A stretch of 64,000 bases of DNA from Candidatus Poribacteria bacterium (GCA_965208325.1 OZ242326.1:4128001-4192000); one strand, 5' to 3'; counted from the first letter of the stretch, positions 718 through 34,905 are shown. The notes: generated from the sequence alone by a model not told the origin. Numbers and translations: made by a program.

Positions 718-817
718 GTGGGTTGGGTTAAGCGGGTTCGTGAATTACGCTGCACACGAGGTATGATTGCCACACCTAGATTCCATCTCAAGATAATAAC
801 GACGTAGCAAACCCAAC
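718..817 (+). repeat. ~100-nt REP-like element, copy A
   Basis: GTGGGTTGGGTTAAGCG...GTAGCAAACCCAAC, followed by GCTTTTT; the termini GTTGGGTT and AACCCAAC are complementary. Confidence 0.7.
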
Positions 818-850
818 GCTTTTTCTTTAACACAAGGAGAGAATTTCACT

Positions 851-2182
851 ATGAACCGAACCGATTCCGTCAATTGGCAACCCTATTCCCCAGCGCGCTT
901 CGAGGGAAAGCTGTGCTATCATCTTTGCACAACGGATTCAGAACTGCCATTGCGAATGGTAATTGAAGGTTACACCGAACCAAACTACGAAACGATGACG
1001 TACAACTACTACTGGTGCTGTAACCAGATAGGCGTCCGCGCCGCCGTCAACGATGGATTGTCACATATCCTATTTGTTACCCGTTATAAAGGTAAAAACC
1101 GCCAATACGCGGAACGCTGCTTTATCGTAGGGTATTATGAAATCGGATGGACAGATACGGTCGGTAACCGCACGGTCATTCGTCCGAAAAAACTCTCCTT
1201 CACGCGGATAGAGGATGCGTACGAAATCACGCCCGAGAGGTGGAAACGTATCAATCCCGACGGTAAATCGTACCAACCTGAGAGTCTCCGCTACGCGACG
1301 CAGCGGCTCAAAGGGAGTCTATTTGAGGAAATCGTCACCCATCTCGACGCGCACGACGCCACGGCAGATTATCTGTTCGAGGTTGCCCGGCTTAAAGCCG
1401 AAACTAATCCCTTTGAAGTTAGTCCGGCGGGTCGTATATTTATTATCAACGTCGGTGCGAACACGGACCACCGGCAACAGAGCCCACTATTCGAAGACGG
1501 CAGTTTCGAATTCGTTCCCATCCCTGCTTCTTCCGACGACGGTTGCACCTTTGCAAATCTCCGCCAGTTTAATGCGCCCGACCGTCCGCTCATTGACCAA
1601 CTCCAGTCGTTAAACATCTCACCCACAACGCAGATTCACAACGATCCCGAGTTCGCCACGTTCACGTTTGGAGACAGCCCCATTGTAAAACCCGGGCTTA
1701 AACCGATGACAAAAGGCGATTTTCTATTCTTCCTGGTACGTTTAGTTCCCTACCGAAACAAGCAATATAAAAACCAAGAAGGGATATTCGCTTTTATCGG
1801 TTTCCTCGAGATCGAAGAGGTAATTCCCCTCCCCTCCGACTCAACCATCGAACCGCTTCTCACAAGCCCCGCGTTCAACCGTAACGCCCACGTGATGCGT
1901 TGGTTTAATGATCGCGTCCCTTACGACGACGGATACGTAGTTTACAAAGGCTCGATAAATTCTCGCCGTTTCCGTAAATCCATCAGATTGGACAGAGCGT
2001 TTGTAGAAGACATCCCGTTACTGACCGCTGCCGGCGCCCCATGGAACTGGGAGACAAACACTGAACTCGCCGTTATCAACTCGCACACACGCAGCGCACG
2101 CCTGCACATTGACCCGAACGCAAATTCGGAAGGCGCCGCCCGCTTCTGGTCGCGAATATTTGCATCCCAAGGGTGGTCTTGA
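851..2182 (+). CDS. Two-domain protein: unassigned N-terminal domain plus C-terminal Nmad3-like (nucleotide modification associated) domain
   Basis: C-terminal half has INVGANTD..SPLFEDGSFEFVPIP..HNDPEF..TFGD..GDFLFF, resembling Nmad3; RBS AAGGAG. Confidence 0.6.
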   Translation: MNRTDSVNWQPYSPARFEGKLCYHLCTTDSELPLRMVIEGYTEPNYETMTYNYYWCCNQIGVRAAVNDGLSHILFVTRYKGKNRQYAERCFIVGYYEIGWTDTVGNRTVIRPKKLSFTRIEDAYEITPERWKRINPDGKSYQPESLRYATQRLKGSLFEEIVTHLDAHDATADYLFEVARLKAETNPFEVSPAGRIFIINVGANTDHRQQSPLFEDGSFEFVPIPASSDDGCTFANLRQFNAPDRPLIDQLQSLNISPTTQIHNDPEFATFTFGDSPIVKPGLKPMTKGDFLFFLVRLVPYRNKQYKNQEGIFAFIGFLEIEEVIPLPSDSTIEPLLTSPAFNRNAHVMRWFNDRVPYDDGYVVYKGSINSRRFRKSIRLDRAFVEDIPLLTAAGAPWNWETNTELAVINSHTRSARLHIDPNANSEGAARFWSRIFASQGWS

Positions 2183-2283
2183 ACCGCCGCGGGTTAAACC
2201 CGCCGCACCTTTACACCTAAATGGATTTCCATGACTGTATAAACATTGGGCGTAAGTAAATAAGGACGAAACGAGGTGAAGAA

Positions 2284-3222
2284 ATGAATGAGACGATTGG
2301 ACGTTTGAAAAAGGTGTCATTACGCGAAGTGTGGCCCCGTGAACCAAGTGATTTTACACCGTGGCTTGCGGAGAACATTGATGTGTTAAACGATACCATT
2401 CACATGTCACTCTCAATCGAAGAACGTGAGCATCCCGCGGGGATGTTCAGCGCAGATCTCCTCGCAGAGGATGAATCTGGCAATCCTATTATTATTGAAA
2501 ATCAGCTTGAGCGCAGCAACCATGACCACCTCGGCAAGGTAATTACGTATTTGTCCGTACTTGGGGCGAAAGCGGCTATCTGGATTGTATCTGATCCTCG
2601 GCCTGAACACATCACCGCAATCACTTGGCTCAATGAATCGTCATCAGCTTCTTTCTATCTTGTCAAACTTGAGGCGATTCGAATCGGTGATTCATTGCCT
2701 GCGCCGATGCTGACACTGATTGTTGGCCCAAGTGAGGAGAGCGAACAAGCTGCCGAAACAAAGAAAGAACTCAAGGAGCAGCATCTTCTCCGCAACCGGT
2801 TTTGGTCTCAATTGTTGAGTCGTGCTCGGGAAAAAACATCGTTACATGCCAACATTGCGCCAAACGATCGCTCATACCTATGGACGCCGGTAAAAAATGG
2901 ATTGTACTTGCGTTACGGGGTGCGGCAGCACGCATCCGATGTGAAGTTATACATCGATCGAGGCGCAGATAAGAAGGATAGTGAGAACAGTGAGATTTTC
3001 GATGCGCTCTTTGAAGCTAAAGCAGAGATTGAAGAAGTTTTTGGCGAAACGCTTGATTGGTACCGACTCGAAGACAAGCGTGCCTGCCGAATCGACAAAG
3101 AAATTTCATTGGGCGGCTACCGCGACGAGGAAAAATGGCAAGATATTCACGAGGCCATGATCGATGCGATGATTCGGCTAGACAAAGCACTGAAGCCCTA
3201 TATTCAGAAGTTATCGCTCTAG
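2284..3222 (+). CDS. DUF4268 domain protein with N-terminal NucS-like PD-(D/E)xK region
   Basis: LREVWPRE.SDFTPWL, ADLLAED..IIIENQL..HDHLGK; C-terminal FW..L...WYRLEDKRACRI. Confidence 0.8.
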   Translation: MNETIGRLKKVSLREVWPREPSDFTPWLAENIDVLNDTIHMSLSIEEREHPAGMFSADLLAEDESGNPIIIENQLERSNHDHLGKVITYLSVLGAKAAIWIVSDPRPEHITAITWLNESSSASFYLVKLEAIRIGDSLPAPMLTLIVGPSEESEQAAETKKELKEQHLLRNRFWSQLLSRAREKTSLHANIAPNDRSYLWTPVKNGLYLRYGVRQHASDVKLYIDRGADKKDSENSEIFDALFEAKAEIEEVFGETLDWYRLEDKRACRIDKEISLGGYRDEEKWQDIHEAMIDAMIRLDKALKPYIQKLSL

Positions 3223-3306
3223 CATTAATACCTTAAGGGATACAAAAGGATAGTATGATGGGGGCAACACACTACTCTTTACACCTGCCGTCAAAAGTTG
3301 CCGCTT

Positions 3307-3406
3307 GTAGGTTGGATTATACGGGCAAATAAAAGACGTTAAAAAAGTCGAATGGATATCGGTATTTGAATTTGTTCTGAAATTGTCAACACGCAGCGAA
3401 CCCAAC
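3307..3406 (+). repeat. ~100-nt REP-like element, copy B
   Basis: GTAGGTTGGATT...GCAGCGAACCCAAC. Confidence 0.65.
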
Positions 3407-3584
3407 AATCAACCGAGTGAATAACGAAGGCGGTAGTCTTGTCTTATTTACGAGACGTTTCGGTTGCCGGTTGTCGGTCGGAATGATAAATACGATTTGG
3501 AATAGAAGAAACAGAAGAGTTATTGGGGATTCGGGGCGGCGTTAGTGTTTGGTACTCGTTTAGGTTGGCGGAGGTTTTAAAAGC

Positions 3585-3687
3585 GTTGGGTTTCGCTCGA
3601 TTCATAGGATATTGTGCGTAGTTTGGTTGGCGGGGGTGGTTTATTAAACGGGCGATTTTTTGGGTGAATCTGCTCTACCCAACCTAC
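3585..3687 (-). repeat. ~100-nt REP-like element, copy C (inverted relative to B)
   Basis: Reverse complement reads GTAGGTTGGGTAGAGCAG...GAGCGAAACCCAAC, followed by GCTTTT. Confidence 0.75.
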
Positions 3688-3878
3688 AGGAGCTTACCGC
3701 AATTACATGAAAATTGGGAATTCCTCAAAGCTAACATGCCTGGGTTCAAAAGCAAAATAACCCAATCCAATGTCCAACAGTTTCATTACACGAGGCTATC
3801 AGATGGTTTACCGCAGAATATCAATGTTTACTATGATATACTTTACAAAGACTAAAATCGAGTCTAGGAGAACCGGCA

Positions 3879-4535
3879 ATGGCACAACTAGACCTCTTTT
3901 CCGTTTCAAATCACAATTCTCCTTTTCCGCAACCTCCGCCGAAAAATGAGAAAGCCACAGATACAATCAAAGGCTTCAAATACATAGAACGCTACATTAA
4001 CAAATGTGTACATGAACGGTTGATAGAACAGATTGACGGGAACTCATGGCTTGAAGATTTAAAGCGGCGTGTACAGCATTATGGTTTCAAGTACGACTAC
4101 AAAGCGCGGAAAGTCAACTATGGTATGCATATTGGGGATTTGCCGGAATGGCTGCAAATTCTTGGTCAAAAATTACATGAGGATGGTCACATGCCGGCAA
4201 TACCAGACCAAGTTATTGTTAACGAATACAAACCAGGGCAAGGGATTTCCAGTCATATTGATTGTGAACCTTGTTTTGAAAATATGATTGTCTCTTTGAG
4301 TTTGGGTTCAAGTTGTGTCATGGATTTCACGCACAAACTTGACAAGACAAAAAAAATACCTGTTTGGCTTGCGCCGCGAAGTATTATCGTATTGAGAGGT
4401 GAATCAAGATATTATTGGTTACACGGTATCGCTCCGAGAAAATCAGACCATTGGGATGGCCAAACGTATAATAGACAGCGCAGGGTATCGTTAACATTTA
4501 GAAAGGTGATTATCGAAAACCCTTTAAGGCAATAA
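3879..4535 (+). CDS. AlkB-family 2OG-Fe(II) dioxygenase
   Basis: RRVQHYG, NEY..GQGISSHID (HxD), WLHGI (distal His), RRVSLTFR. Confidence 0.9.
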   Translation: MAQLDLFSVSNHNSPFPQPPPKNEKATDTIKGFKYIERYINKCVHERLIEQIDGNSWLEDLKRRVQHYGFKYDYKARKVNYGMHIGDLPEWLQILGQKLHEDGHMPAIPDQVIVNEYKPGQGISSHIDCEPCFENMIVSLSLGSSCVMDFTHKLDKTKKIPVWLAPRSIIVLRGESRYYWLHGIAPRKSDHWDGQTYNRQRRVSLTFRKVIIENPLRQ

Positions 4536-4882
4536 CTGTAGCTCGAAGCTTTTTCGAATCTACATATCGGTTTTGTGGGGTGGGCAGAGCGCATCCGATG
4601 AAGTATGCCCTCCCTTAATCATAACCAATCATTAAATCACACAAATCACAGTTCATGCAGTTGTTGTACGTCTGGCAGAGAGAGCGGAAGTGTCGCAATT
4701 CGAATACCGCTCCTACGCAGGCGGGTTTTGGGGGTAAATTCAAGTAATATCATAATTCCTCCGATTTAGGAATGTTGCCTGACTTATGGCGGTCGTAGTC
4801 AATCCATTTTAACATGGTTTGGCAATTGCCACTAAATTCTAAATTGGCACGGTTTTGAGCGTATATACCCGGACAAAATTGA

Positions 4883-5770
4883 ATGCAAACGCACATCATT
4901 ACCCGTGACCACATCGTTTATAGTTTCGACCGAGAGCATAGCCCAGTTCGAAAAATCGATCCAGGCGACAAAATCCGCTTTGAAACGTATGACGCGAGAA
5001 CCGGTACGATTCGGAGCGAAGACAATCTTCTCGACCGCCCGCATCCACGTGGCGCAAATCCCGCTACCGGACCGGTCTTCGTGAAAGGTGCCGAACCGGG
5101 TGATACGCTCCGCGTTGAGATTCTAGGGATTGAACTTGCATCGCAGGGTTTCATCGCTATAAAGGCGGGGTTAGGAAACTTGGGGCATCTCGCCGAAAAG
5201 TATGTGACTCGCCTCGTTCAGATAGAGGACGGCATCGTGCACTATGACGACCGCATCCATTTTCCGGTGCGCCCGATGATTGGCGTCATTGGCACCGCGC
5301 CCAGTGGAGAAGCGGTGCCTACGCTTTACCCCGGTCCCCACGGCGGCAATATGGATCATAACGACGTAAAGGTAGGTTCTTGTGTTTACCTGCCTGTTTT
5401 TGTAGAGGGTGCGTTATTTGGGGTCGGAGATGTTCATGCGGCGATGGGGGACGCTGAAGTTACAATGACTGGGATAGAGATTTGCGCTGAAGTCACCGTC
5501 CTAGTGAATCTCATCAAGGGTGAATCAATCACCCGTCCGTGGATCGAGACGGATGCTTCATGGATTACTACCGGCGACGCGCCCAAACTTGCCGATGCCA
5601 TCACAATTGCCTGCGAAGAAATGGCAAATCTCCTCCAGCAGAAGCTCTCCGTTTCATTCGACGACGCCTATCTGTTGATGAGCGCCATCGGCGACGTTCG
5701 GATTAGCCAATCCTGCCAGCCGAACCAATTTCCCTCCACAATTCGTGTCGTATTTCCCAAAATCGATTGA
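4883..5770 (+). CDS. Acetamidase/formamidase family protein
   Basis: NPATGPVFVKGAEPGD, PMIGVIG, HGGNMD, GDVHAAMGD. Confidence 0.9.
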   Translation: MQTHIITRDHIVYSFDREHSPVRKIDPGDKIRFETYDARTGTIRSEDNLLDRPHPRGANPATGPVFVKGAEPGDTLRVEILGIELASQGFIAIKAGLGNLGHLAEKYVTRLVQIEDGIVHYDDRIHFPVRPMIGVIGTAPSGEAVPTLYPGPHGGNMDHNDVKVGSCVYLPVFVEGALFGVGDVHAAMGDAEVTMTGIEICAEVTVLVNLIKGESITRPWIETDASWITTGDAPKLADAITIACEEMANLLQQKLSVSFDDAYLLMSAIGDVRISQSCQPNQFPSTIRVVFPKID

Positions 5771-5833
5771 CGCTTCCAAAAAATAATAGAGCCTGTACGT
5801 CCTTGAATTGACTGCTTACGGCCGTAATGAACG

Positions 5834-5863
5834 TTGACCTTGACGGCTGGTATATGGTATATT
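5834..5863 (+). promoter_or_regulatory. sigma70-type promoter
   Basis: TTGACC-18-TATATT with extended -10 TG. Confidence 0.5.
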
Positions 5864-5870
5864 TTCACAA

Positions 5871-6143
5871 TCTGAGCGGGATCGGATTTCCAATCGTGTA
5901 GAAGGCGAGCATAGCAGTGTAAAGAATTCGCCCCGGCAATCCGAGAATCTCATTCAACTATTTACGTGTCAGGTCAATCTCCTAAAATCACAAGCGTTAG
6001 AAGACATAGCGGAATGATGTAACGATGTAGCGGCAAAAAGCTCAATAGACTTTACTTGTCTCGATCAGGGACGTTAAACATCTATCGAAGAAAAGCCCAT
6101 GTCTGAATCCGGGGCTGCCAACCGGATTGGTCGTGGGCTTTTT
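5871..6143 (+). ncRNA. Candidate structured ncRNA, family unassigned
   Basis: No ORF of 60 aa or more; 5' end 5871-5882 pairs with 6058-6069; two internal hairpins; bounded by a promoter and an intrinsic terminator. Confidence 0.45.
6091..6143 (+). terminator. Intrinsic terminator, possibly bidirectional
   Basis: AAAAGCCCATG..AATCCGG-loop-CCGGATT..CGTGGGCTTTTT. Confidence 0.7.
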
Positions 6144-6321
6144 GAATATAATGTCCTATCCTAGGATGCACGTTTGATATCGTTCGCAAAAAATGGTTTT
6201 GCCAGGTGTTTTTACTTACTTTATGGTTTCCGCGCTACTCCCTGTAGTCATGCAAATTTACTGGCACTACCACTAATTACGCCAGCCTGTAAGTCGGTGG
6301 GCCGTTGGAAGGAACTACCAG

Positions 6322-8022
6322 ATGACAAATGACGAAATTAGCGATGTTTTTAGAAACATCGGCAATCTCCTTCAGATTAAAGGTGAAGACTCCTTTCGCG
6401 CCAGGATTTATGAGAGAGCGGCGGAGTCGGTTGAGTCGCTCACCGTAGACCTGCATGAGTTAGTTGAAGAAGGGCGGCTTCGCTCCATACCCGGTATCGG
6501 TAAAGCAATAGAGCAGAAAATTATCGAAATGCTAGAGACCGGGCGATGTCGTTTTTATGAGAACTTAATTCAGGAGATGGGCTCGGAGGTGTTGGAATTG
6601 CTGCGCGTGCGGGGGATTGGGGCGAAAACAGCCAGCCGCTTTTATCACGAGTTAGGCGTGAAGAGTGCCAGCAATCTCCGGGAAGCAATTGATAGCGGTA
6701 AACTCAAAGAGATGGATCGGATGGGTGCCAAGACAATCGCGGCGATCAATCAGGGTTTGAAATATTTTGAATCACAGAGGCAATCGCGTCCGCTCTGGCA
6801 GATTTTACCGATTGCGCATACCGTTCTAGATGCGTTAGAGCGTTGCGATAAAATTGGAAGAGCTGATTTCACCGGAGACCTCCGTAGGTGCGAAGAAGTG
6901 TTGCAAAGCCTTGAGCTGATAGCTGAATGCGAAAACCCGGTTGCGATTGCTGAAATCTTGTCAGGGATAAAAGGCGTTGAATCACCGGAAATTGAGAATG
7001 GTGTTTTAATCGCTGCATCTGTAGATGCTGGGTTTCCATTGCGAATTCACTGTTACCAGCCCGAGGCGTATGCGGAAGGATTGTTGTTGACGACAGGTAC
7101 GCGTGAGCACATAGCTAAACTCAATCAGATTGCTAAAACTCGAAACCTGGACGAGTTATGCACGCCGTCACCAGTCCGGAGCAAAAATTCGACTGAAGCT
7201 GGCATCTATGATAAGCTTGGATTACCTTTCATCGTCCCTGAATTACGGCGGAGTGCAGATACAGTAGATTCCGCCTTGGCAGGTGAGTTGCCGACTCTAA
7301 TTGAGATCGAAGATTTGCGTTGCGATCTCCATGCCCACACCGACTGGAGCGATGGGCGGCATTCAATTAAGGAAATGATAGAAGCCGCCAAAGCGTTTGG
7401 ACATGAATACATCGCCATTACCGATCACTCGGAATCCTCGCGAGTGGCAAACGGATTGACTCCTGAACGGCTGCTCGAACAGATTAAACACATCCGCGAG
7501 GCGAATGCGGCGATCGGCGGCATTGAAGTGTTAGCCGGTTCCGAGGTCGACATCCGAATGAATGGAAGGCTTGATTTTTCCGATAATATCCTGGAACAAC
7601 TCGACATCGTTATCGCAAGCGTTCATTCTGGCTTTACGATGAGCAAATCAGCGATGACGAAGCGCGTGGTACGTGCCATAGAAAATCCGTATGTTTCAAT
7701 TATCGGCCACCCAACAGGGCGGTTACTGGGTCAACGCCCGGGATATGCGATTGACCTCGATGAAGTAATCAGTGCAGCCGCGGCGAATGATGTCGTGCTA
7801 GAAATTAACGCATCTCCCAGCCGGTTGGATTTGGAGCCGTCCGTTGCCCAAGATGCGCGGAGAAATGGGGTGTTACTAGCGATTAACACGGATGCGCATT
7901 CGACAAAACAAATCGAACACATCGGGTTCGGCGTCAACGTTGCACGGCGGGGTTGGCTAGAAAAGAAAGATGTGATTAACACTTATCCGTTGGCGTCATT
8001 GAAGAAGATAATTACCCGATAG
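6322..8022 (+). CDS. polX: DNA polymerase X/PHP protein with a degenerate polymerase active site
   Basis: HhH motifs IPGIGK and VRGIGAK; PHP motifs HAHT, TDHS, GSEVD, GHPTGR, NTDAH; the usual GS.RR..DxD region reads GDLRR...QSLEL. Confidence 0.9.
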   Translation: MTNDEISDVFRNIGNLLQIKGEDSFRARIYERAAESVESLTVDLHELVEEGRLRSIPGIGKAIEQKIIEMLETGRCRFYENLIQEMGSEVLELLRVRGIGAKTASRFYHELGVKSASNLREAIDSGKLKEMDRMGAKTIAAINQGLKYFESQRQSRPLWQILPIAHTVLDALERCDKIGRADFTGDLRRCEEVLQSLELIAECENPVAIAEILSGIKGVESPEIENGVLIAASVDAGFPLRIHCYQPEAYAEGLLLTTGTREHIAKLNQIAKTRNLDELCTPSPVRSKNSTEAGIYDKLGLPFIVPELRRSADTVDSALAGELPTLIEIEDLRCDLHAHTDWSDGRHSIKEMIEAAKAFGHEYIAITDHSESSRVANGLTPERLLEQIKHIREANAAIGGIEVLAGSEVDIRMNGRLDFSDNILEQLDIVIASVHSGFTMSKSAMTKRVVRAIENPYVSIIGHPTGRLLGQRPGYAIDLDEVISAAAANDVVLEINASPSRLDLEPSVAQDARRNGVLLAINTDAHSTKQIEHIGFGVNVARRGWLEKKDVINTYPLASLKKIITR

Positions 8023-8082
8023 AGCGCCATCCGGAAAACTCCCGCATTACTCCCAAGTTATACGCTCTTCGGGGCTTTTTCT

Positions 8083-8111
8083 TTGACATTCCCCGGCATT
8101 CATGATAAATT
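8083..8111 (+). promoter_or_regulatory. sigma70-type promoter
   Basis: TTGACA-17-TAAATT with TG. Confidence 0.55.
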
Positions 8112-8149
8112 TCCGTCGAATCCTACACTAGATCGAATTCACGAAAACC

Positions 8150-9991: not shown

Positions 9992-10051
9992 AAAGGCTGG
10001 AAACAGGAACGCGGTTTAACTAATTTTTATGTTTCTTCCGCGGGAATTAAG

Positions 10052-12355: not shown

Positions 12356-12385
12356 ACCGCAAATTTCTGGATTTTTCTCGATTTC

Positions 12386-18546: not shown

Positions 18547-18554
18547 GGTAAACA

Positions 18555-23918: not shown

Positions 23919-24095
23919 CATCGGTTCTTTAACAGCGGCAGGTTCCGCCCAGATTGGCAAAGGCAGAGGGTTTTTTAGCATAGCATTTGTCCTCGGAGCA
24001 GATTATGCAATCGTGCGCATGTTGGGCAAATCCTGTAATCGACTAAAGAACTAAGGAGTCAGGTTAGTGCCTTTTTTCGGTAAGGAGACTTTTAG

Positions 24096-24536: not shown

Positions 24537-25173
24537 TGCGTGCTAACTGCTGGCTGTGACATGCTAAAAATTTACCATGACAATTTTGTGCATTTCGCTG
24601 CTCTTGCTTACTGTCATATTTTTGCTTGCAGAACACCTTCCGATCTAGTATTGGTCGCACTTTGTACTAGTGCGTGCAGCAGTTTGTGTCATATTACGTG
24701 ATGAAAGGTCTCATGGAATTCGGAGTGACATACACACAAATTTATGGGAGTCTGCTGGAAACGCTTTTGGGCGCCCACGGGCAATAAAACTGAAATCTTT
24801 TGGCGGTTACCTGTTGGTGTCCACGTTAATTGGAACTGTCCATCTTAAGGTCACAATGCACCAGCACGAGCCCGAGTTGAGAGAAACTGTCAATGCGATG
24901 AACGAACATTTCCGCACTTACCTCAGTCGTACAGATTAAACCTCGTTTGCTTTCTATTCAACCGCTGCGCTTTCTCTACTCGCAATTGGCGTGATGTTCT
25001 ATTCTGGCTCCTTCTAACATGCCGATGAGTTTACGGCTAAATTGGCGGTGTGTTTCTTTGGTATAGAGGCAGCGGATTCGGATTGGCTGAGTGGTTTTTC
25101 GGCAAAACCCGCTGCGCTTACCGATTTATCGAATAACGGATTATTTAGGGCGCAATATAGGAGACACATTACG

Positions 25174-26658: not shown

Positions 26659-27608
26659 ACAACAAAAACGATTACATCGAAGCCGCTCACCAGATCATTA
26701 TTTCGCTAGGTCTTCCACGGGCGCAACAAAACGAGCGTTCCGCTCTTTGTTTGCTGGCACTCCTGAACCTCACGCCAGGCAAAATTTGGGTCGACGCCGA
26801 AAACCCGCTTTTAGGTATCACGCCCATCATGGATTGGGTGCGGGAGCACTACGACAAGGAATATGCACCGAACACCCGTGAGACAATTCGTCGCCAAACA
26901 ATGCACCAGTTCTGTGATGCCGGTATCGCGCTTTACAACCCGGACAGGCCGGATCGCCCAATAAATAGCCCGAAAACAGTCTATCAAATTGAACCCGCAG
27001 CGTTGGTTCTGCTTCGTACCTTTAACTCTCCCGCATGGCATGATGCACTGACGACCTATCTGGCCCAGCGCGAAACTCTGATAGTCCGCTACGCTAAGGA
27101 GCGGAAGCAGAATCTTATCCCAGTTAAGATTTCACCGGGAAAGGAAATCACTCTTAGCCCCGGCGAGCACAGCGAATTGATTCGAGCCATCATTGAGGAC
27201 TTCGCTCCACGATTCGCTCCGGGTAGCGTACTGGTCTATGTTGGCGATACCGGAGACAAGTGGGGTTATTTTGACGTGGGTCTACTGGCCGAACTTGGGG
27301 TCCGTGTGGATTCCCACGGCAAGATGCCTGATGTAGTTCTGTACTTTACTGAGAAGGATTGGTTGCTCTTGGTTGAGTCGGTTACCAGCCATGGTCCCGT
27401 TGATGGCAAGCGACATAGTGAACTCACTAATCTCTTTGCCAAGTCAAAGATTGGACTAGTTTATATTAGTGCTTTCCCAAATCTCGCCATCATGGGACAG
27501 TATCTCGGCGAAATCGCTTGGGAAACGGAAGTGTGGGTCGCCGATACTCCATCGCATCTAATCCATTTTGACGGTGCCCGTTTCCTTGGACCATACAATT
27601 CGCTCTAA
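26655..27608 (+). CDS. BsuBI/PstI family type II restriction endonuclease
   Basis: YAPNTRETIRRQT, LSPGEHS, HGKMPDVV, ESVTSHGP, AWETEVW; ATGA overlap with the methyltransferase. Confidence 0.92.
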   Translation: MNNKNDYIEAAHQIIISLGLPRAQQNERSALCLLALLNLTPGKIWVDAENPLLGITPIMDWVREHYDKEYAPNTRETIRRQTMHQFCDAGIALYNPDRPDRPINSPKTVYQIEPAALVLLRTFNSPAWHDALTTYLAQRETLIVRYAKERKQNLIPVKISPGKEITLSPGEHSELIRAIIEDFAPRFAPGSVLVYVGDTGDKWGYFDVGLLAELGVRVDSHGKMPDVVLYFTEKDWLLLVESVTSHGPVDGKRHSELTNLFAKSKIGLVYISAFPNLAIMGQYLGEIAWETEVWVADTPSHLIHFDGARFLGPYNSL

Positions 27609-28356
27609 CAAGGCGCTGCACCGGAAAAATTTCAGAACCAAAGTCCGAATGAACTTGATAGTTAAAATGAAGATTTTGTTGAAAAACGCAATATACACCA
27701 AAGAATATCCAACAGAATTCATTGACCACACGGAATTTGAATTTCTATGCATCATCTGAACAATAAGTTCAAGTTGAGTAAAATCAGAAGACGAATCCAA
27801 CCTATACTACTTTTAAAGGAGAGAAAAATCATCACGACAGTAACCCGAGTTATTATTGTTCGCGCCGGGAGAAGTTCGCAATAGAAACATCTGCAGGGTC
27901 GTCAATATGCCGAAGAGTTTTCTGTTAATCTACACGCTGGAGGCGGGCAAACATGTGATTCGCTAAAAGCCACTTGTAGGGAACGCAAACGATGGTCAAG
28001 CCATGGTCTACGCCCAAATGGTATCAGGAAAAGTGCTTCAGATTGGGATATAATTCCGTTTGGGGGCGAGTGCCGGGACGTTGCGTAAATTGTAACAGCA
28101 GAGTTATTGATTGCGATAGAACGCGGTATAGGTTAAGCCATATCTGGAAATTTCGCACATAGCGTGAAGAGATCTATTTGCCCTAAACGGTTCAGGTCTC
28201 TTGACATCTTGCACCAAATTGTGCAGCCGCGCTTTTTGAATTTGAGGGAAAAAAATTACTCCGCACCGCTACAAAAAGGACAAAACAAACGTCAGCACCT
28301 GATTACAGCCATGAGCGAAAGCACGCCAAAACTCTGTGTATAAAAATATAATGTAT

Positions 28357-28372
28357 TGGCACATTAATTGCG
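28357..28372 (+). promoter_or_regulatory. sigma54 -24/-12 promoter
   Basis: TGGCACATTAATTGCG, with exact GG-N10-GC spacing, ~85 bp before the LamG start. Confidence 0.65.
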
Positions 28373-28454
28373 TTAACATATGGCAGTTTGAGAGGAAACG
28401 GTCCACATGCTAGATTACTAAAGAGCATCTTTACAGAGACTAAGGAGGATCAAA

Positions 28455-29273
28455 ATGTTCTCAAAGACTGCTGTCGCCGCTTTCGTTTTAACGGTTATCG
28501 CATTGGCGGTTTTCCCTGTTAATGAAGTAAAAGCTCAGGAATACGTAGCTAGGGACCTCATGGGCTATTGGACGATGGACAAGGCAAATATTGATGGGCA
28601 AATCGTCAAAGATATTTCGGGAAAAAACAATCATGGAGTAATTATCGGAAATCCCCAAAGCGTCAGTGGAATAATTGGGGAAGCTCTCGATTTTGACGGG
28701 GTGGATGATTTTGTCGCCCTGCCGGATTTGGGGCGTGAACATGAAGTGACGGTAGAGGTCTGGGCAAGTGGCGATCAGCCTTTCCAAGTTAATGGGTTGG
28801 TTTCTACGTCCGTTATCCCGGAAAAAATGCCGGGAAGCGTTGTGACCTTCAGCGTTAGATTCAATCGAATCGACCTCCACATAAAGTACACGGGCGGCTA
28901 TATGTCGCACCAAGGCGGTTTAGTAAAACCGCACACGTGGTATCACTTTGCCTATACTGCCGACTTGATTAAACCGTTCGGTGAGCAATTCGCGGTGTAC
29001 ATTAATGGTAGCGACGGGATCGGGGGAATTCACGGCGTGCAGGAGTTCCCAAACGTTGAAAAGCCGCCAATCAATCTCACGCGGCTCAGAATCGGAAGCG
29101 AGCTCAAGGGCAGGTACTTTCCCGGTATCCTTGATGAAGTCCGTATCTATAATCGCGCATTAACGCAGGAAGAGATACAGCAAAATTTTGAGTACAGAAA
29201 CAATGCACTGGCGGTTGATGCCGCGGGAAAGCTGGCCGTCACTTGGGGCGCGATGAGGAACTCACAGAATTAA
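28455..29273 (+). CDS. Secreted LamG/concanavalin-like domain protein
   Basis: Signal peptide; ALDFDGVDD, WYHFA, GILDEVRIYNRAL; tail AVDAAGKLAVTWGAMR. Confidence 0.88.
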   Translation: MFSKTAVAAFVLTVIALAVFPVNEVKAQEYVARDLMGYWTMDKANIDGQIVKDISGKNNHGVIIGNPQSVSGIIGEALDFDGVDDFVALPDLGREHEVTVEVWASGDQPFQVNGLVSTSVIPEKMPGSVVTFSVRFNRIDLHIKYTGGYMSHQGGLVKPHTWYHFAYTADLIKPFGEQFAVYINGSDGIGGIHGVQEFPNVEKPPINLTRLRIGSELKGRYFPGILDEVRIYNRALTQEEIQQNFEYRNNALAVDAAGKLAVTWGAMRNSQN

Positions 29274-29550
29274 GTGCCTATGATTATATTGTGGTGCAAG
29301 ATGAGTTGCTTTAGCTCCCGATTCATGAGGTAGAACCGAACGGCGATCTCTGCCTGCGGACATTGGTGTTGCAGTGGTCAAACTCAGGCTTACATTCCGT
29401 AGAGAAAATACGCAAAAATCAGAGTATTAAGGAATGCGGAGTTTTTTGGTGTGTGTTAAGAAGAAACGATTATTTTCGCTCTTTCCAAACCATTGTATTA
29501 TCGTATATAATAATGCGGAACAAACCTAAAACCCAAAAAGGAGAAAAAAA

Positions 29551-30360
29551 GTGAAACACACGATTTTTATTGCATTAATCCTCTGTTTGACTCTCGCGTT
29601 CCAACTTGAAGACTCGGCGGCGCTCGAAGTTGACAAGGATGTAGTCCTCGCTATCACGTTTGACGAAGGAAAGGGTGATGTCGCCAAAGACCTGTCGCCG
29701 CACGGCAACGACGGCACGTTGCAACAGAAGGCGAAACGGGAAAAGGGAAAGTTTGGGCAGGCGATACGACTGGACGGTACGAACCAAGTCGAGGTTGAGA
29801 ACGACGACAGCCTCAGTCTACACAAATCCGATTTCACCATTGGGGTATGGCTCTATTTTGAGGAAGATCCGCCGAAAGGGAACCGGGGTTCTGCGGGCTT
29901 TACGCTGCTCGGACATGACGAGGGGGGCGGTTCCACAAACAAGTGGATTTGGTGGTATTCCGGAAACGGAATCGACTTCCACATCAATACCGCCGGCGGC
30001 GCGGGCGTCGCTTGGGTCGATTCCGAGCCGTGGGACCCCAAGCTAAAGCAGTGGTATCAGATGGTGCTCACCAAGGAGGGGAGGAAATACACTTATTATT
30101 TAGATGGAAAGCCGTTCGGAAGAGTGGATGACAACGTGGCAATCCCCGAAGAGATTGACCACGCGCTAAATATCGGCTGGTCGGAAGGCCCGTTCTTTTT
30201 CAACGGTATGCTCGACGAAGTCTTAATCGTTAAACGCGCCTTGAGCGCAGACGAGGTTGAAACGCACTTCGATGGCGGATTGAAAGGATTTCTCGCCGTT
30301 CACCCGCACGGAAAGATTAGCACCACATGGGGTAACCTGAAGGCAAGCGCATCAAATTGA
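29551..30360 (+). CDS. Secreted LamG domain protein
   Basis: Signal peptide; FDEGKG, GMLDEVLIVKRAL; tail AVHPHGKISTTWGNLK. Confidence 0.88.
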   Translation: MKHTIFIALILCLTLAFQLEDSAALEVDKDVVLAITFDEGKGDVAKDLSPHGNDGTLQQKAKREKGKFGQAIRLDGTNQVEVENDDSLSLHKSDFTIGVWLYFEEDPPKGNRGSAGFTLLGHDEGGGSTNKWIWWYSGNGIDFHINTAGGAGVAWVDSEPWDPKLKQWYQMVLTKEGRKYTYYLDGKPFGRVDDNVAIPEEIDHALNIGWSEGPFFFNGMLDEVLIVKRALSADEVETHFDGGLKGFLAVHPHGKISTTWGNLKASASN

Positions 30361-30380
30361 TGTAGGTTGGGTAGATAAGC

Positions 30381-30896
30381 GTGAAAATGAAACGATTCAT
30401 TATCCTCATCTGCATCGTATTCACCTCAGCTTGCGGCGGGGTGAAGTTAATCGACATCTCAAAATCCTCATCCGCGCTGAACCTGTCATCGGAACAGCTA
30501 AATGTCATTTCGCCCAAAATTTCAGTCATTAGGGACATTGTCGAAGACTACAAATTTGAAAAAGACGTGTTAGAGTCGCACTACCACGGCTATCGCAGCG
30601 AAGCACGGATGGATCGATTGAGCCCGTACGAAGGCGACCGGAGAATGTATCGGCAGTCGGTGAGGGCACGACACGCGTTGAGAGCCAAGATTCGGGAGTT
30701 CATAGTTCAACGCAATGCGTACCTCAAGGAGATTGGCGGGCTCCTAAACGAAATTAAAGCCGCACTCACGCCCGAACAACTAACTCGGTTTGACGAACTC
30801 AAGATGCCGGACCTGAAACTACCGACGATGATAAAACCCAATCACTTCCGCGGCTTAGACGCAATGCCCGGTACATTTCCGTTTGGGCGCCTCTGA
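30381..30896 (+). CDS. Helical putative lipoprotein with LTxxQ (Spy/CpxP-like) motifs
   Basis: Lipobox TSAC; LSSEQ and LTPEQ. Confidence 0.6.
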   Translation: MKMKRFIILICIVFTSACGGVKLIDISKSSSALNLSSEQLNVISPKISVIRDIVEDYKFEKDVLESHYHGYRSEARMDRLSPYEGDRRMYRQSVRARHALRAKIREFIVQRNAYLKEIGGLLNEIKAALTPEQLTRFDELKMPDLKLPTMIKPNHFRGLDAMPGTFPFGRL

Positions 30897-30907
30897 GCGA
30901 AGCACAC

Positions 30908-31009
30908 GCAGTTTGAGTAGATCGGATTTTTCCAAACCTGTTCTTGCGGCAAATGCCGTGCCTTACGCCGAACGGTGAGATTGCCAGATTAACCCGAGCG
31001 AACCCCAGC
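30908..31009 (+). repeat. ~100-nt REP-like element, degenerate copy
   Basis: GCAGTTTGAGTAGATCGG...GAGCGAACCCCAGC; an inverted left-end remnant CTCAACCTAACCTAAC lies at ~31057. Confidence 0.45.
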
Positions 31010-31075
31010 GCTTGTGTAAACACCAGGCGCAATAATTAAAATATTTCATCGCACCACTCAACCTAACCTAACTGG

Positions 31076-31792
31076 CTACGTAAAGAATTCCTCGTTATAC
31101 GGGCGCAAATCCAGCTCAAACGTCCATGAACTCCGCGGCTGCTGGGCAAGACTCCAATATGTCTCGGCAATCTCGTCCGGATCTAGGGTCGGTTCATCAT
31201 CGTCCAGCTGGTATCGGGTGCGCACGTCAGGTGTATTGATGATTCCGTCCACGATAATGTGAGCAACATGAATCCCTTGATGCCCAATCTCGCGCGCCAA
31301 CGCCCAGGCTAGACCGCGCACGGCAAATTTTGCGCTGCTAAACGCTATTGCCCCCGGTCGTCCGCGAATGGCTGAAGTTGCGCCGGTAAAGAGGATGGCC
31401 CCACCGCCCCGCTCCACCATATCGGGCACGGCTTCTTGTGCGCACAAAAACGCCCCCAGCGCGCACACACGCCAAGAATGCTCAAATGCATCGGGCGTCA
31501 ACTCAGAAAAATTGCCCCACGCGGCATTTCCGGCGTGGTTGACCAAAATATCGACGGGGCCCAACGTTTCTCGCACTGCCGAAAAGCTGCCCGTAATTTG
31601 AAGTGGGTCTGTAATGTCCGTCGGTAACGCGAGGCAAATCGTCCCCGCTTCCCGAAGTTCCGCAGCCAGCGCATCAATGTAACCCGAAGAACGTGCGAGC
31701 AGCGCTACGCGGCATCCTTCGCGCGCAAATTTTTTTGCTAAGGACGCTCCCAATCCGGCGCCGACACCGGCGATTACCGCTGTCTTTGACAT
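31076..31792 (-). CDS. Short-chain dehydrogenase/reductase
   Basis: AGVGAGLG, NHAG, FTGAT, FSSAKFAVR, HVAHIIVDG. Confidence 0.9.
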   Translation of the reverse strand: MSKTAVIAGVGAGLGASLAKKFAREGCRVALLARSSGYIDALAAELREAGTICLALPTDITDPLQITGSFSAVRETLGPVDILVNHAGNAAWGNFSELTPDAFEHSWRVCALGAFLCAQEAVPDMVERGGGAILFTGATSAIRGRPGAIAFSSAKFAVRGLAWALAREIGHQGIHVAHIIVDGIINTPDVRTRYQLDDDEPTLDPDEIAETYWSLAQQPRSSWTFELDLRPYNEEFFT

Positions 31793-31845
31793 TTGAGTTT
31801 CCTTCCTCCAATTTCAGTGCAATGATTTTAGTTTCCATGTCTCCT

Positions 31846-31947
31846 GTAGGTTGGGTTAAGGTGGGTTTTACCAAATACATAGCCAAGCGAAACTACGCCG
31901 CGAACTTGAATTGGCGACATTGGCATATACCCGGAATAAAACCTAAC
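31846..31947 (+). repeat. ~100-nt REP-like element, copy E
   Basis: GTAGGTTGGGTTAAG...AAAACCTAAC; an inverted right end AAAACGTTGGGTTACGC lies at ~32000. Confidence 0.6.
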
Positions 31948-32020
31948 GCATTTAGGGTTTTGCATAGCCTCAAATATACCAATCGCATTGTGCAACCAAA
32001 AAACGTTGGGTTACGCTATT

Positions 32021-33802
32021 TCAATCCCTTACGACCCTGTAATCCGGATTGCACAAATCGCAATTACCGCATCTGTAATCCTCTGGAACCGATTCGCCGA
32101 AATACCTCCGTGCGGCGCGCCCGCGGCAATGGTCTGCGAGCGCATAATGTACTACCTGATCCAGCTGCCGCCGCTTGCCTAGAATGAAATCCTCAAATCC
32201 CATCTGATCCTCAGAAATCGAACCGAAGAGGTGGCTCTCACGCAGCAGCTCAATGAGCATCGAATCCTCTGTTCCCCAATACCGCAGATACCCATCGTTC
32301 TGCAAGTCAATTAGTTGTTCCATCAAATCGTCCGGACGGATATCTAAGTCCCTGCAAAATTCCATCGTGTTCAATTCGGATTGTGTCCGCAGTTGCTCTA
32401 GCAGCGCACGTTGGTCGTGATCTTCTATCCTGTAATTTGGGACGAACGGCGTCCGGATTGACAGTCTTGAAGGGATGTCATACATCCTTCGCAGGAACCC
32501 GAGTTTCTGCAGGTAGCTGATGCCGACCCTGATTTTTCCGGCGCTAAAGCCGCTCAACCACTCCAGTTCTTCTGCAGGAATCATGCGGAATTGGTGCAGG
32601 GCGGGAAATGTTTCAATTAACTTGAGAAGTTTAAGCAGATTGCGCTTGTTTGGCGCGTCTTCCTTGATAAACCATTCGCGCAACCTCCGATCGTCGGGAC
32701 AATAAAAGAGCACACAGTTGGAGTCTCCCCCATCCCGGCCAGCACGCCCTGATTCCTGATAATATTCCTCCAGTGTCCCCGTCATCGCCCAATGGATGAT
32801 GTATCGGATGTCAGATTTGTCAATCCCCATTCCGAATGCGTTGGTCGCCGCGATGAGGTCTATGCCGTCAGGTCCATCTTCAAAGAATCCATCCTGCACC
32901 CGTTTTCGCTCTGACGCATCGCGCCCGGCATGGTAATAATCCACGCGCCGTCCGTGCGATCCCAAAACGGCCGCAATTTCCTCCGTGTCGCGTCGGCGCC
33001 CCGCATAAATAATTCCTTTGCCTTCAAGTTTTTCCAGGCAGGCATGCAGCATCGCGTATTTTTCGGTCTCGCTGGAGAGGGCACAGACGCTAAATTTCAG
33101 ATTGCGGCGCACAATACTTCGTAAAAAGGTTTCGCAGCGATCAACGTCCAACTCACGCAAGACGTCCGCACGCACTTCCGGGGTCGCGGTCGCTGTGAAA
33201 AGGGCAATCGAGCGCGGGTGCAGTACCCGGATGGCGTCGCGCAACGCCAGATACGCGGGTCGGAAGTCGTGCCCCCACTGGGATATGCAGTGCGCTTCAT
33301 CTATGACGAACAGCGAGATAGGGAACGCGTCGAGACGCGCCAAAAACCGACGACTTCGAAACCGTTCCGGTGCAGCATAGAGCAATTTTATCTCACCGCG
33401 TTTCAAACGGTCCAACTCAGCCTGATACTCCTCCAAATTTAGGCTGCTGTTGATTAGCCCGACCGAATGGATACCACGCCCACGCAATGCGTCCACCTGA
33501 TCTTTCATCAAGGAGATTAACGGCGAAACGATGATGGCGACGCCGGGCTGAATTAGCGCAGGCAACTGAAAACAGAGTGATTTGCCGTAACCGGTCGGAA
33601 ACGCAGCGAGGACATTGCCGCCGTTAAGGATTGCTTCAATTATTTCGCGCTGCCCGCCTCGGAACGCGGAAAGTCCGAAATAGTGTTTGAGCGCAGCAAG
33701 TAACTCGTCTGAAGTATTGACAGGCAGTGCCGGCGGCTCCGAGGAAGGCTGTAGGTCGATGAGTTGATCGATATTTTCAAGTAGATTCTGTAAATTCTTC
33801 AT
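32021..33802 (-). CDS. recQ: RecQ family DNA helicase, no HRDC domain evident
   Basis: PTGYGKS, DEAHCISQWGHDFRP, TATAT, AFGMGID, QESGRAGRDG, C-terminal CGNCDLC. Confidence 0.92.
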   Translation of the reverse strand: MKNLQNLLENIDQLIDLQPSSEPPALPVNTSDELLAALKHYFGLSAFRGGQREIIEAILNGGNVLAAFPTGYGKSLCFQLPALIQPGVAIIVSPLISLMKDQVDALRGRGIHSVGLINSSLNLEEYQAELDRLKRGEIKLLYAAPERFRSRRFLARLDAFPISLFVIDEAHCISQWGHDFRPAYLALRDAIRVLHPRSIALFTATATPEVRADVLRELDVDRCETFLRSIVRRNLKFSVCALSSETEKYAMLHACLEKLEGKGIIYAGRRRDTEEIAAVLGSHGRRVDYYHAGRDASERKRVQDGFFEDGPDGIDLIAATNAFGMGIDKSDIRYIIHWAMTGTLEEYYQESGRAGRDGGDSNCVLFYCPDDRRLREWFIKEDAPNKRNLLKLLKLIETFPALHQFRMIPAEELEWLSGFSAGKIRVGISYLQKLGFLRRMYDIPSRLSIRTPFVPNYRIEDHDQRALLEQLRTQSELNTMEFCRDLDIRPDDLMEQLIDLQNDGYLRYWGTEDSMLIELLRESHLFGSISEDQMGFEDFILGKRRQLDQVVHYALADHCRGRAARRYFGESVPEDYRCGNCDLCNPDYRVVRD

Positions 33803-33882
33803 GTGACGATCCGGGTGAATTGCAATTTAATACCAGTCGATCCGCCCCAAGTGCCCAAATGACGCCGATGTTCAATCTCGGA

Positions 33883-34581
33883 TTAGTCCTTGAATCGAAA
33901 ACGGATAATATGATACATTGCTGCAATCCCATCCTTCCAACTCACTTTTTTCCCCTCGTGATAGTCGCGTCCACGATAGGTTACCGGCACCTCACAGATT
34001 CGGCATTTGCGTTTTGCGAGTTTTGCGGTAATCTCCGGTTCAAATCCGAATCGATCCGACCGCAGCGGAATATCCAACAAAATTGAGGATTTTATTGCCT
34101 TGTAGCAGGTTTCCATATCCGTCAGCTTAAATCCGGTGCACAGATTGGAGAACGCAGTCAAAAATCTATTCGCGGCATAACTCGATAACAGCGCATGTCC
34201 GCGTCCCGTTTGGAAACGCGAACCGTAGACCGCGTCCGCAACACCGTCCAAAATCGGCTGGATTAGTTCCGGGTAGTCTTGTGGATTATACTCCAAATCG
34301 GCGTCCTGAATGAGAGTTATGTCACCCTCAACGTGCTGGAATCCGGTGCGCAAGGCTGCGCCCTTGCCATAATTTACATCGTGGTAAAAGGCGCGGATGG
34401 GTGAGTCGCTAGACGATTCAATCTCCCGGAGAAGTTCACGCGCCCCATCGGTTGAGCAATCGTCCACCAAAACAATCTCTTTTTCAATCCCGATGTCGAC
34501 CGCTTGTACCTGCCGGAGCACTTCCTCCAATGTGCCGACCTCATTATAAACGGGAATTACAATGGAGAGCTTATGCTGCAT
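33883..34581 (-). CDS. GT2 (DPM1-like) glycosyltransferase
   Basis: IPVYNE, DDCSTD, QDADLEY, TDMETCYK, FEPEIT. Confidence 0.92.
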   Translation of the reverse strand: MQHKLSIVIPVYNEVGTLEEVLRQVQAVDIGIEKEIVLVDDCSTDGARELLREIESSSDSPIRAFYHDVNYGKGAALRTGFQHVEGDITLIQDADLEYNPQDYPELIQPILDGVADAVYGSRFQTGRGHALLSSYAANRFLTAFSNLCTGFKLTDMETCYKAIKSSILLDIPLRSDRFGFEPEITAKLAKRKCRICEVPVTYRGRDYHEGKKVSWKDGIAAMYHIIRFRFKD

Positions 34582-34648
34582 GGCCGACCACCTGACGGAC
34601 GAAAGCAGATGTTACTTTGTAATTTAACACATAAACACCTAACACGCC

Positions 34649-34750
34649 GTTGGTTGGGTTGAACGGATTTGGCAGACTCATACTTTTAGAAGAAAAAACG
34701 CGGCGGGCAAAAACGAGGTTGATAACACAATCCGCGAAGCGAAATTCAGC
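34649..34750 (+). repeat. ~100-nt REP-like element, copy F (degenerate right end)
   Basis: GTTGGTTGGGTTGAACGG...GAAGCGAAATTCAGC. Confidence 0.5.
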
Positions 34751-34809
34751 GCGGTACGTTAGACAGTACCGACTCCGTTCAACGAGATGACTCTCAATAG
34801 CCAAAAGGC

Positions 34810-34905
34810 GTTGGGTTACAGAGAAAACTGCCGCCTAAAATCTCTTTCGCCCAAAATATTCCTCCGGTTGGTGTTGTTCGATCGCGCGGCCTCAACCCAA
34901 CCTAA
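34810..34905 (-). repeat. ~100-nt REP-like element, copy D (inverted relative to F)
   Basis: Reverse complement reads TTAGGTTGGGTTGAGG...GTAACCCAAC, followed by GCCTTTT. Confidence 0.65.

Follow-up and report, generated by a model that had tools for sequence, protein, structure and literature searches.

What sort of repeat holds its two ends and its length constant around an interior with little common sequence? The question is posed by a stretch of 64,000 nucleotides (nt), called the window here, that lies within the 4.71 Mb, single-contig genome of a Candidatus Poribacteria bacterium. A first-pass annotation described in this window seven intergenic copies of an element of about 100 nt that begins with GTAG, has ends able to pair with each other, and encloses dissimilar cores of near-constant length. 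It placed the element in a family of repetitive extragenic palindromes (REPs) tied to a REP-associated tyrosine transposase (RAYT), and it proposed a hypervariable or captured core, possibly a spacer-like system. The elements are of a known kind, REPs resembling bacterial interspersed mosaic elements (BIMEs) with an identified RAYT clade, and they are not a spacer-capturing system. With a probability of roughly 0.8, they are GTAG-superfamily REPs whose loop has grown to ~70 nt, which were moved by one clade of RAYTs and which have been orphaned in this genome. What is new is a sequence-free, length-fixed loop about five times longer than described, a link between one RAYT clade and one hairpin across phyla, and a pair of lineages with and without the transposase.

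Across the genome the family comprises about 250 near-full copies, with the 5' end GTAG-GTTGGGT and the 3' end GCGAAACCCAAC. The 11-mer GTAGGTTGGGT occurs in 296 exact copies where about 2 are expected; allowing up to two mismatches, it has 27 matches in the window against 9.2 expected, a count reached by none of 100 shuffles. When each 5' end (at most one mismatch) was joined to the nearest 3' end within a limit of 400 nt, 292 of 472 5' ends found a partner and 180 did not. Among the 292 paired ends, 206 are 100-104 nt long (119 of them exactly 102 nt) and 19 are 31-35 nt long. A profile built from the genome copies and searched with nhmmer gave 292 matches. Of these, 250 are close to full length, and in 243 of the 250 the length departs from that of the model by no more than 2 nt. 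The constraint on core length first proposed from seven copies is therefore seen in the sharp length distribution of the whole genome. In a catalogue of 209 copies the mode is 102 nt and the standard deviation 0.97.

The conserved parts follow a set order: AGYTYTT, GTAGGTTGGGT[A/T]GAGCGG, a weak CC/TG-AAA at positions 25-29, GTAGCG[A/T]AACCCAAC at the 3' end, and then GCTTTT, which follows the 3' arm in most copies. Of the 119 copies with a length of exactly 102 nt, 117 or more have GTAG at positions 1-4 and the arm directly after it at 5-11, a regularity partly imposed by the collecting motif. The catalogued copies lie mostly outside crude open reading frames (ORFs) in 171 of 209 cases, and their orientation relative to neighboring genes (58, 44, 37 and 32 in the four classes) shows no preference. 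A search of literature full text for the GTAGGTTGGGT 11-mer returned unrelated primer matches only.

The element can be read as GTAG, the arm GTTGGGT, a small internal loop, a mini-stem of 2 base pairs (R15-C16 with G-Y), a core of ~70 nt and the return arm ACCCAAC. CT-containing pyrimidine runs, AGYTCTT upstream and GCTTTT downstream, frame it on both sides. Pairing of the two ends has been examined in REPs that lie beside RAYTs, 307 in 106 loci. Canonical arms are found in 204 of these, changes in both arms that keep 7 of 7 pairs in 70, and other, mostly one-sided changes in 33. The compensated variants are GTCGGGT/ACCCGAC (54), GATGGGT/ACCCATC (10), GCTGGGT/ACCCAGC (5) and GTTGGGC/GCCCAAC (1). 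The mini-stem pair 15:108 was compared in 64 long forms from many genomes, where it is A-U in 29, G-C in 26, G-U in 2 and something else in 7. None of 500 shuffles reached the observed covariation, and sliding the partner columns abolished the signal. Arm compensation and covariation at 15:108 together identify the two ends of the 102-nt element as arms of one REP hairpin despite the ~70 nt between them, and the pairing first supposed for the window copies is upheld. The ends also come in coordinated types at positions 12 and 94, A/A in 148 and T/T in 46 of the 209 copies. In the T/T type the internal loop beside the stem becomes two extra base pairs. The end type goes with the 3' tail, which is GCTTTTGAAACC as against GCTTTTCG or GTTTTT.

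In related genomes the same ends flank one clade of RAYT. Relatives were drawn from a set of 151 Poribacteria genomes, in which G002 is the closest to the present genome (G000) and G001 and G003 are congeners. The RAYT is 182 amino acids (aa) long; its score against NCBIfam NF047646 (REP-associated tyrosine transposase; cut-off 80) is 201 bits, and it matches the E. coli protein TnpA-REP (4ER8) at E 2.6e-37. An alignment of 14 members shows no variation in the HUH and YxHxNP motifs (LPDHLH and YIHYNPVKHG). Orthologs at 68-100% identity occupy 27 loci in 26 of the 151 genomes, three of them with an in-frame stop. All 26 ortholog loci that were fetched, including those of G001 and G003, have GTAGGTTGGGT ends within ~600 nt of the gene. 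Read by hand, 18 of the 26 carry forms of 97-104 nt, typically as convergent doublets on both sides, and 8 carry 30-nt hairpins alone. Short hairpins often adjoin the gene on both sides, with GTAG facing outward. Paralog loci (43-45% identity) are different, since none of four has a GTAGGTTGGGT end near the gene and one has a single end ~1.4 kb away. Five other copy-rich Poribacteria genomes were scanned with PF01797, and weak matches in two of them (G073 and G084) have the element on both sides of the gene. A RAYT flanked by its own REPs, the arrangement called a REPtron, is thus found in relatives and not in the present genome. The annotated tie between a GTAG-tagged REP family and a RAYT is confirmed in these genomes, and the search it recommended, for a RAYT gene between the same ends, was successful there.

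The hairpin has a wider distribution than its long form. The RAYT has relatives, 50-78% identical to it, in Poribacteria and many cyanobacteria as well as in Chloroflexota, methanotrophs, Bradyrhizobium and other groups. The same motif lies near the gene in 57 of 80 such loci, almost always as a hairpin of 29-37 nt; for example, relatives in Nostoc, Calothrix, Cyanothece and other organisms have it at 29-32 nt. Forms of 43-70 nt occur at a few cyanobacterial and Chloroflexota loci, and a true form of at least 95 nt is found among the 80 only in a Poribacteria record (L075). A short hairpin across phyla and a form of at least 95 nt in Poribacteria alone point to the ~70-nt loop as a lineage-specific expansion of a widespread REP, and the short form is probably the ancestral one. 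Loop-insert forms of the same REP, recurrent at 51-54 and 70 nt, have also been observed in Calothrix, Okeania, Tychonema and Coleofasciculus (L089, L081, L091 and L092), so that expansion of the loop is not confined to Poribacteria. Within the 151 Poribacteria genomes the long-form pattern is present in 78, all from a single order and there from three families (12 of 25 with the present genome set aside, 56 of 100, and 9 of 10); other families have it in 0 of 15, and a reversed control pattern had no match in the 151.

The mechanism proposed for these elements draws on homology with the REPtrons of E. coli, Stenotrophomonas and Marinomonas. The ends would pair on single-stranded DNA, and a RAYT of the HUH/Y1 type from one specific clade would recognize GTAG and the irregular stem. 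It may cut at the flanking CT and then move or copy the element, frequently in tail-to-tail doublets that combine two core types. In the E. coli system CT is the cleavage site of TnpA-REP, GTAG is modeled as a guide, and the role of the loop is non-specific (PMC8266576). In the present genome CT is enriched on either side of the element: of the 209 copies, 139 have it no more than 8 nt upstream and 158 no more than 8 nt downstream, compared with 0.32 for random 8-mers, in line with the cleavage sites of characterized TnpA-REP enzymes. Where related copies sit in unrelated flanks, the left boundary falls within ~7 nt of GTAG, and the right boundary is variable, commonly ~19 nt past ACCCAAC. The loop sequence would be a drifting passenger whose length is kept within ~2 nt, most likely by the geometry of recognition or amplification. 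The cognate RAYT was probably lost in the present genome and in G002, which would leave ~250 copies orphaned, slowly decaying and inherited in place.

No RAYT ortholog was found in the present genome or in G002, where the best matches are other RAYTs at 26-30% identity; the window contains no RAYT at all, as had been noted. The genome does hold two RAYT genes (PF01797), whose flanks carry other REP types and lack the GTAGGTTGGGT motif. The genes lie at L001 (genome 1954441-1957773) and L002 (genome 3320444-3323779), each with its own REP type: GTAG plus a GC-rich 19-nt palindrome beside one, and beside the other AAACCGAGTTTT..AAAACTCGGTTT hairpins, which recur inside mosaic arrays. The second of this pair adjoins ORFs of 324 and 323 aa. 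In G001 and G003 the RAYT that belongs to the family lies between orthologs of genome ~4224755 and ~4226268, an interval that a rearrangement at window ~29500 has placed outside the window. At that synteny break G001 and G003 continue with orthologs of genome 4221783-4231989, which are ~64-74 kb downstream here. The corresponding interval of the present genome contains a 140-aa ORF, a convergent (tail-to-tail) doublet and other repeat modules, with no RAYT. This doublet (genome 4225394-4225779) is ~76% identical over ~400 columns to the B/C doublet of the window, the spacer and a nested GATAG unit included, which suggests that the doublet may have been copied as a whole.

Several observations weigh against the proposed history of RAYT-driven spread and orphaning. 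The putative link to the RAYT is one of adjacency and homology only. In the present genome tblastn did not find the cognate RAYT, the best matches being the two other RAYTs at 26-28% identity. The long-form pattern, which is present in 22 of 26 genomes with a RAYT ortholog, is also kept in 56 of 125 without one, so that element and RAYT have been only loosely associated in evolution. Nothing points to current mobility, as 85% core identity is reached by only 28 pairs of copies that lie more than 5 kb from each other. The best distant core pairs are 93-96% identical, and the pairs at 96% also share flanks. Such a small number of highly similar distant copies is consistent with an orphaned population. 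A clean presence/absence polymorphism with exact boundaries was not found. Contigs from four DNA sequencing runs gave only joints that stem from other copies with shared ends, a result with no bearing on mobility. G003 lacks the 30908-31076 block, where a short remnant resembles a deletion scar and not a clean empty site, and in the comparison of the present genome with G002 at genome 78-82 kb the indels do not involve the element family. Finally, the closing stem is weak by itself: when six elements were folded as single-stranded DNA, the full end-to-end stem was present in 3 of 6 minimum-energy folds and in part in 2 more. The indels at 78-82 kb, ~210 nt (genome 78104-78313) and ~2 kb (genome 79423-81420) relative to G002, lie beside a cluster of elements.

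Neighboring elements show preferred arrangements. Among neighbors no more than 400 nt apart, 50 pairs are convergent (+-), 13 divergent (-+) and 54 tandem. The convergent pairs have quantized spacers (~16-17, 43-49 and 126-128 nt in profile coordinates) and usually couple a core of the 'ATCC-CAAA' type with one of the 'TGAAA' type; different REP types, alternating orientation and set spacers are the features of a BIME. Many copies belong to tandem arrays with a constant period, 158 to 352 nt; the duplicated units are larger mosaics in which other repeat modules also occur, and the tandem cores are near-identical. Associated with the family is a GATAG mini-element of ~34-37 nt, with the rough genome-wide consensus ..GGATCAAC.GA.CGAATAGCGA.GGCGATAGT.T (window 3407-3445). 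It directly follows ACCCAAC in 27 of the 209 copies and also occurs within REP loops of the 62-64 and 96-97 nt classes. The 8-mer GCGATAGT has 365 occurrences in the genome.

A repeat of ~100 nt with inverted ends and intergenic spread might also be a classical MITE (a miniature transposable element with inverted repeats), that is, a deletion derivative of an insertion sequence (IS) of the DDE type, with terminal inverted repeats, moved in trans. Some copies are even fully symmetric and end in CCTAC. However, there is no target-site duplication, and the conserved flanks differ on the two sides (AGYTCTT and GCTTTT) and are part of the element or of its target. No longer, autonomous copy was found; the genes between paired copies are unlike transposases by eye, a judgment made with no family search. 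The ends, moreover, are those of a RAYT-linked REP, and a MITE is very improbable.

The near-constant length of the long-loop REPs is probably not due to an absence of indels. Non-coding DNA of the present genome and G002 differs by 12 gap events per 277 substitutions, or 0.043. Pairs of cores at 70-100% identity have 0.05-0.12 gap events per substitution, some of which may be alignment artefacts, and the mean length difference of these pairs is only 0.08-0.68 nt. Taken at face value, the gap counts suggest that indels arise and that net core length is nonetheless kept. Elements in other genera fall in the same range of 97-104 nt. In the REP doublets forming hairpins (REPINs) of Pseudomonas fluorescens SBW25, length and the ability to fold into a hairpin are likewise, according to the authors, apparently what is critical in the spacer (PMC3116915). 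That spacer belongs to a long hairpin, and the core in Poribacteria does not.

Length could instead be quantized by inserts and not by the transposase, if the loop arose from two mobile units of ~36 nt nested in an ordinary 30-nt REP. The genome has discrete length classes, consisting of bare hairpins of 31-35 nt, forms of 62-64 nt, forms of 96-97 nt and the main class of 100-104 nt. The first three fit zero, one and two GATAG units, with one unit in the loop of 4 of 6 forms of 62-64 nt and two units in 2 of 3 forms of 96-97 nt. Autocorrelation of the cores peaks at shifts of 36-37 (z 5.8 and 5.2; 72 representatives), and the cyanobacterial loop-insert forms of 51-54 and 70 nt point the same way. 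On the other side, the periodic signal comes from few columns, the cores are unlike the GATAG consensus, a half-length intermediate with an insert of core type was not seen among these classes, and the cores are never found outside REP ends. Nor does such an origin account for constant length after gaps. It is compatible with RAYT-moved, long-loop REPs and is best regarded as possible but rather doubtful.

The cores themselves are diverse. Their median pairwise identity is 0.55, compared with 0.53 for shuffled cores, and at 70% identity they form 49 clusters, the biggest with 55, 45 and 28 members. Weak position-specific motifs are common to cores across subfamilies and genera. The dissimilarity originally remarked upon is accordingly true of the seven window cores and not of the genome, where cores fall into subfamilies. 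In G002 the same sites hold the same elements and cores (~94% identity over window 30000-35500). The sole profile-detected element in the compared stretch (31842..31953) differs at 11 of 112 sites, or 0.098 per site, and other non-coding DNA at 0.097. The same cores at the same sites, with divergence at the background level, indicate that cores are inherited in place and drift at an ordinary rate.

It is in this light that a dispersed capture system, in which each core would be foreign or host DNA of measured length, has to be judged. Constant length combined with dissimilar cores (0.55 against 0.53 when shuffled) is what such a system would produce. An array at genome 1111500-1112920 also has units 1 and 2 with flanks 0.90 and 0.91 identical and unrelated cores (0.53). 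But orthologous copies in G002 keep their cores, and the profile-detected element diverges at the non-coding rate. The all-versus-all and BLAST comparison suggested earlier was carried out against the host genome with the 209 cores: subfamilies emerged, and 62 cores match outside the strict catalogue. The matches listed are to GATAG mini-elements or to degenerate copies of the family, with a single exception of 21 nt. No core was found outside REP ends in this comparison of the 209 cores with their own genome, phage and plasmid collections not being included. Motifs shared by position across subfamilies and genera, and arrays that are tandem duplications of whole units, further argue against capture. 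As far as sequence comparison goes, the cores appear neither hypervariable nor captured, their divergence being that of other non-coding DNA. The spacer-like core is accordingly not supported, and acquisition of measured DNA is hardly credible.

The array at 1111500-1112920 may have arisen by replacement of a core in situ, or the two units may have inserted independently into the same target. No other clear case was found, a genome-wide screen by strict criteria giving no pair with the same flanks and different cores. The loop could be imagined as a length-gauged slot. The ~100 nt would be measured by the transposase or by a host protein bound between the arms, or, as the ~90% identical flanks around unrelated cores in this array suggest, the slot would consist of two nested mini-elements of ~36 nt, with cores exchanged at the conserved ends. 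If this speculative and unlikely scheme were true, the element would be a hairpin transposon that carries and swaps cargo of fixed size, in a three-tier nest of selfish DNA.

Constant length might also be set by a fold, were the element a structured small RNA or cis-regulatory RNA with an end stem followed by a run of T. The stem covariation fits RNA equally well, GCTTTT follows the 3' arm in most copies, and REPs of other bacteria act in transcripts (PMC3733652). The search for structure beyond the stem gives a different picture. Comparison of the whole window with Rfam at gathering thresholds was negative, as was that of window 1-5000 at E<=5. A covariation scan of 109 unique 102-nt copies detected no nested covarying helices inside the core, RNAalifold on 72 representatives gave no structure, and averaged pair probabilities consistently predict the end stem alone. 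Core folds have a mean z against shuffles of -0.24 on one strand and -0.12 on the other, and the six whole elements folded as single-stranded DNA range from -1.0 to +1.5. The lack of orientation preference relative to genes and the frequency of convergent pairs also count against a transcript, and an RNA is improbable. Peptide coding was rejected as well: a canonical copy, inspected by eye, has stops in all three forward frames, and lengths of 100-104 nt are unlike a reading frame.

Comparison with known systems helps to place these REPs. The closest likeness is to the REP/BIME elements of E. coli and TnpA-REP (the REPtron; PDB 4ER8; PMC3479197, PMC8266576), where GTAG also lies 5' of a hairpin with an irregular stem and CT is found on both sides. 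Both occur as hundreds of intergenic copies in alternating orientation, with different REP types paired, and in both a single-copy RAYT is flanked by its own REPs. The GTAG directly 5' of the stem-loop, the pairing arms and the high extragenic copy number are all as expected of REPs. Size is not. REPs are 20-40 bp with loops of up to ~27 bp, in a survey whose method set aside any repeat with an unusual loop (PMC3733652); here the mode is 102 nt, with a ~70-nt loop beyond the mini-stem, where the E. coli REP has a loop of a few nt. The Poribacteria loop is also non-palindromic and unconserved yet fixed in length, and the present genome lacks the cognate RAYT. The further REP families with GTAG that Di Nocera et al. 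(2013, PMC3733652) described share the tag, have stems of 6-9 bp and form dimers 20-100 bp apart. The 'large loops (9-15 bp)' of the cyanobacterial GTAG-15 and a maximum of ~27 bp remain far below 70 nt, and Poribacteria are not among the phyla named in the available part of that survey. No mention of Poribacteria was found among the papers listed by a literature search on REPs, RAYTs, REPINs and MITEs.

The REPINs of P. fluorescens SBW25 (Bertels and Rainey 2011, PMC3116915) are similar in having conserved inverted ends around a less conserved spacer, a size of ~100 nt, a link to a RAYT and singlets that are interpreted as decay products. In contrast, each end of a REPIN is itself a REP and the whole is one long imperfect palindrome; the Poribacteria ends are the two arms of a single REP, the core lacks self-complementarity, and a doublet joins two 102-nt units with different cores. 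Two inverted REPs and a spacer in one long hairpin are not what these elements contain. With IS200/IS605 elements (IS608, ISDra2; PMC8266576) they share a Y1 HUH enzyme, recognition of hairpins in single-stranded DNA, a 5' guide tetranucleotide and the lack of target duplication. Unlike those, they have no transposase between the ends and one hairpin instead of separate left and right hairpins.

The BIMEs of E. coli pair Y and Z REPs, and the order of the Poribacteria doublets is nearer to that pairing than to a palindromic REPIN. The small dispersed repeats of Nostocaceae, which Elhai and co-workers are said to have described in 2008, are reportedly tiny units that insert into other repeats. 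They resemble the nested GATAG mini-elements, in REP loops and after ACCCAAC, and not the 102-nt REP. The attC sites of integrons were excluded. In attC the inverse core comes first and the core last (RYYYAAC ... GTTRRRY), and the boxes here, read from the sequence on both strands, are in the opposite order (GTTGGGT ... ACCCAAC).

REPs and their domesticated transposases are among the commonest bacterial repeats, and their recognition and spread are known from a few proteobacterial models with tiny loops. The natural series of loops in ~30, 50-70 and 102 nt forms offers a way to ask what the enzyme reads, the foot of the stem and GTAG alone or the distance between arms too. The contrast between G001/G003, with the RAYT, and the present genome and G002, without it, bears on whether REP populations freeze and decay after loss of the transposase. 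The ~250 copies of 102 nt and the nested mini-elements make up much of the intergenic repeat load that breaks assemblies in Poribacteria. Long-loop REPs can also be mistaken for small RNAs or for units of a CRISPR kind. Their hosts are one order of sponge symbionts.

The copies and remnants in the window are listed below.

Table 1. Long-loop REP copies, single ends and doublet spacer in the window (nhmmer E values are from the profile built on the genome copies)
Feature	Position	Strand	Remarks
Copy A	712..823	+	Element proper 718-817 (100 nt), then GCTTTT; nhmmer E 5.6e-10; closing stem within predicted single-stranded DNA fold
Copy B	3304..3410	+	Element 3307-3406; nhmmer E 9.6e-7; left half of tail-to-tail doublet
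B/C doublet spacer	3411..3578	.	Nested GATAG mini-element at start, directly after ACCCAAC
Copy C	3579..3694	-	Element 3585-3687; nhmmer E 3.5e-14, best in window; right half of doublet
Degenerate lone 5' end (GTGGGGTGGGCAGAGCG)	4567..4583	+	3 mismatches to 5' consensus; no 3' partner
Lone 5' end with exact 11-mer	30362..30378	+	Just upstream of an ORF start; kept in G002 with one change
Decayed copy, both ends degenerate	30908..31009	+	Not detected by nhmmer at E<=1e-3; kept in G002
Degenerate 5' end, opposite orientation	31056..31071	-	2 mismatches; probably remnant of a partner copy
Copy with decayed 3' end	31842..31953	+	Element 31846-31947; nhmmer E 1.6e-5
Lone 3' end GCGTAACCCAACGTTTTT (minus-strand reading)	31995..32018	-	Faces copy 31846-31947; kept in G002
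Decayed copy, good 5' end and degenerate 3' end	34649..34750	+	Sub-threshold in nhmmer; left half of convergent pair
96-nt copy, recognizable ends	34810..34905	-	Sub-threshold in nhmmer; right half of convergent pair; kept in G002

All seven copies named in the first-pass annotation are present at their positions between crude ORFs. As members of one family they are unequal, with four passing nhmmer at E<=1e-3 and the other three (30908-31009, 34649-34750 and 34810-34905 on the minus strand) being decayed, with degenerate ends. The two pairs it called head-to-head, B/C and F/D, have their 3' ends facing each other and are convergent, that is, tail-to-tail if GTAG is the head. The lone ends that it placed at ~4575, 30362, ~31057 and ~32000 were all recovered by reading the sequence, and the 3' end at 31995..32018 is the remnant of a tail-to-tail partner. 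The core of copy B is 78% identical to that of the copy at genome position 4225394, and the copy at 34649..34750 is kept in G002 with a 4-nt deletion in its core.

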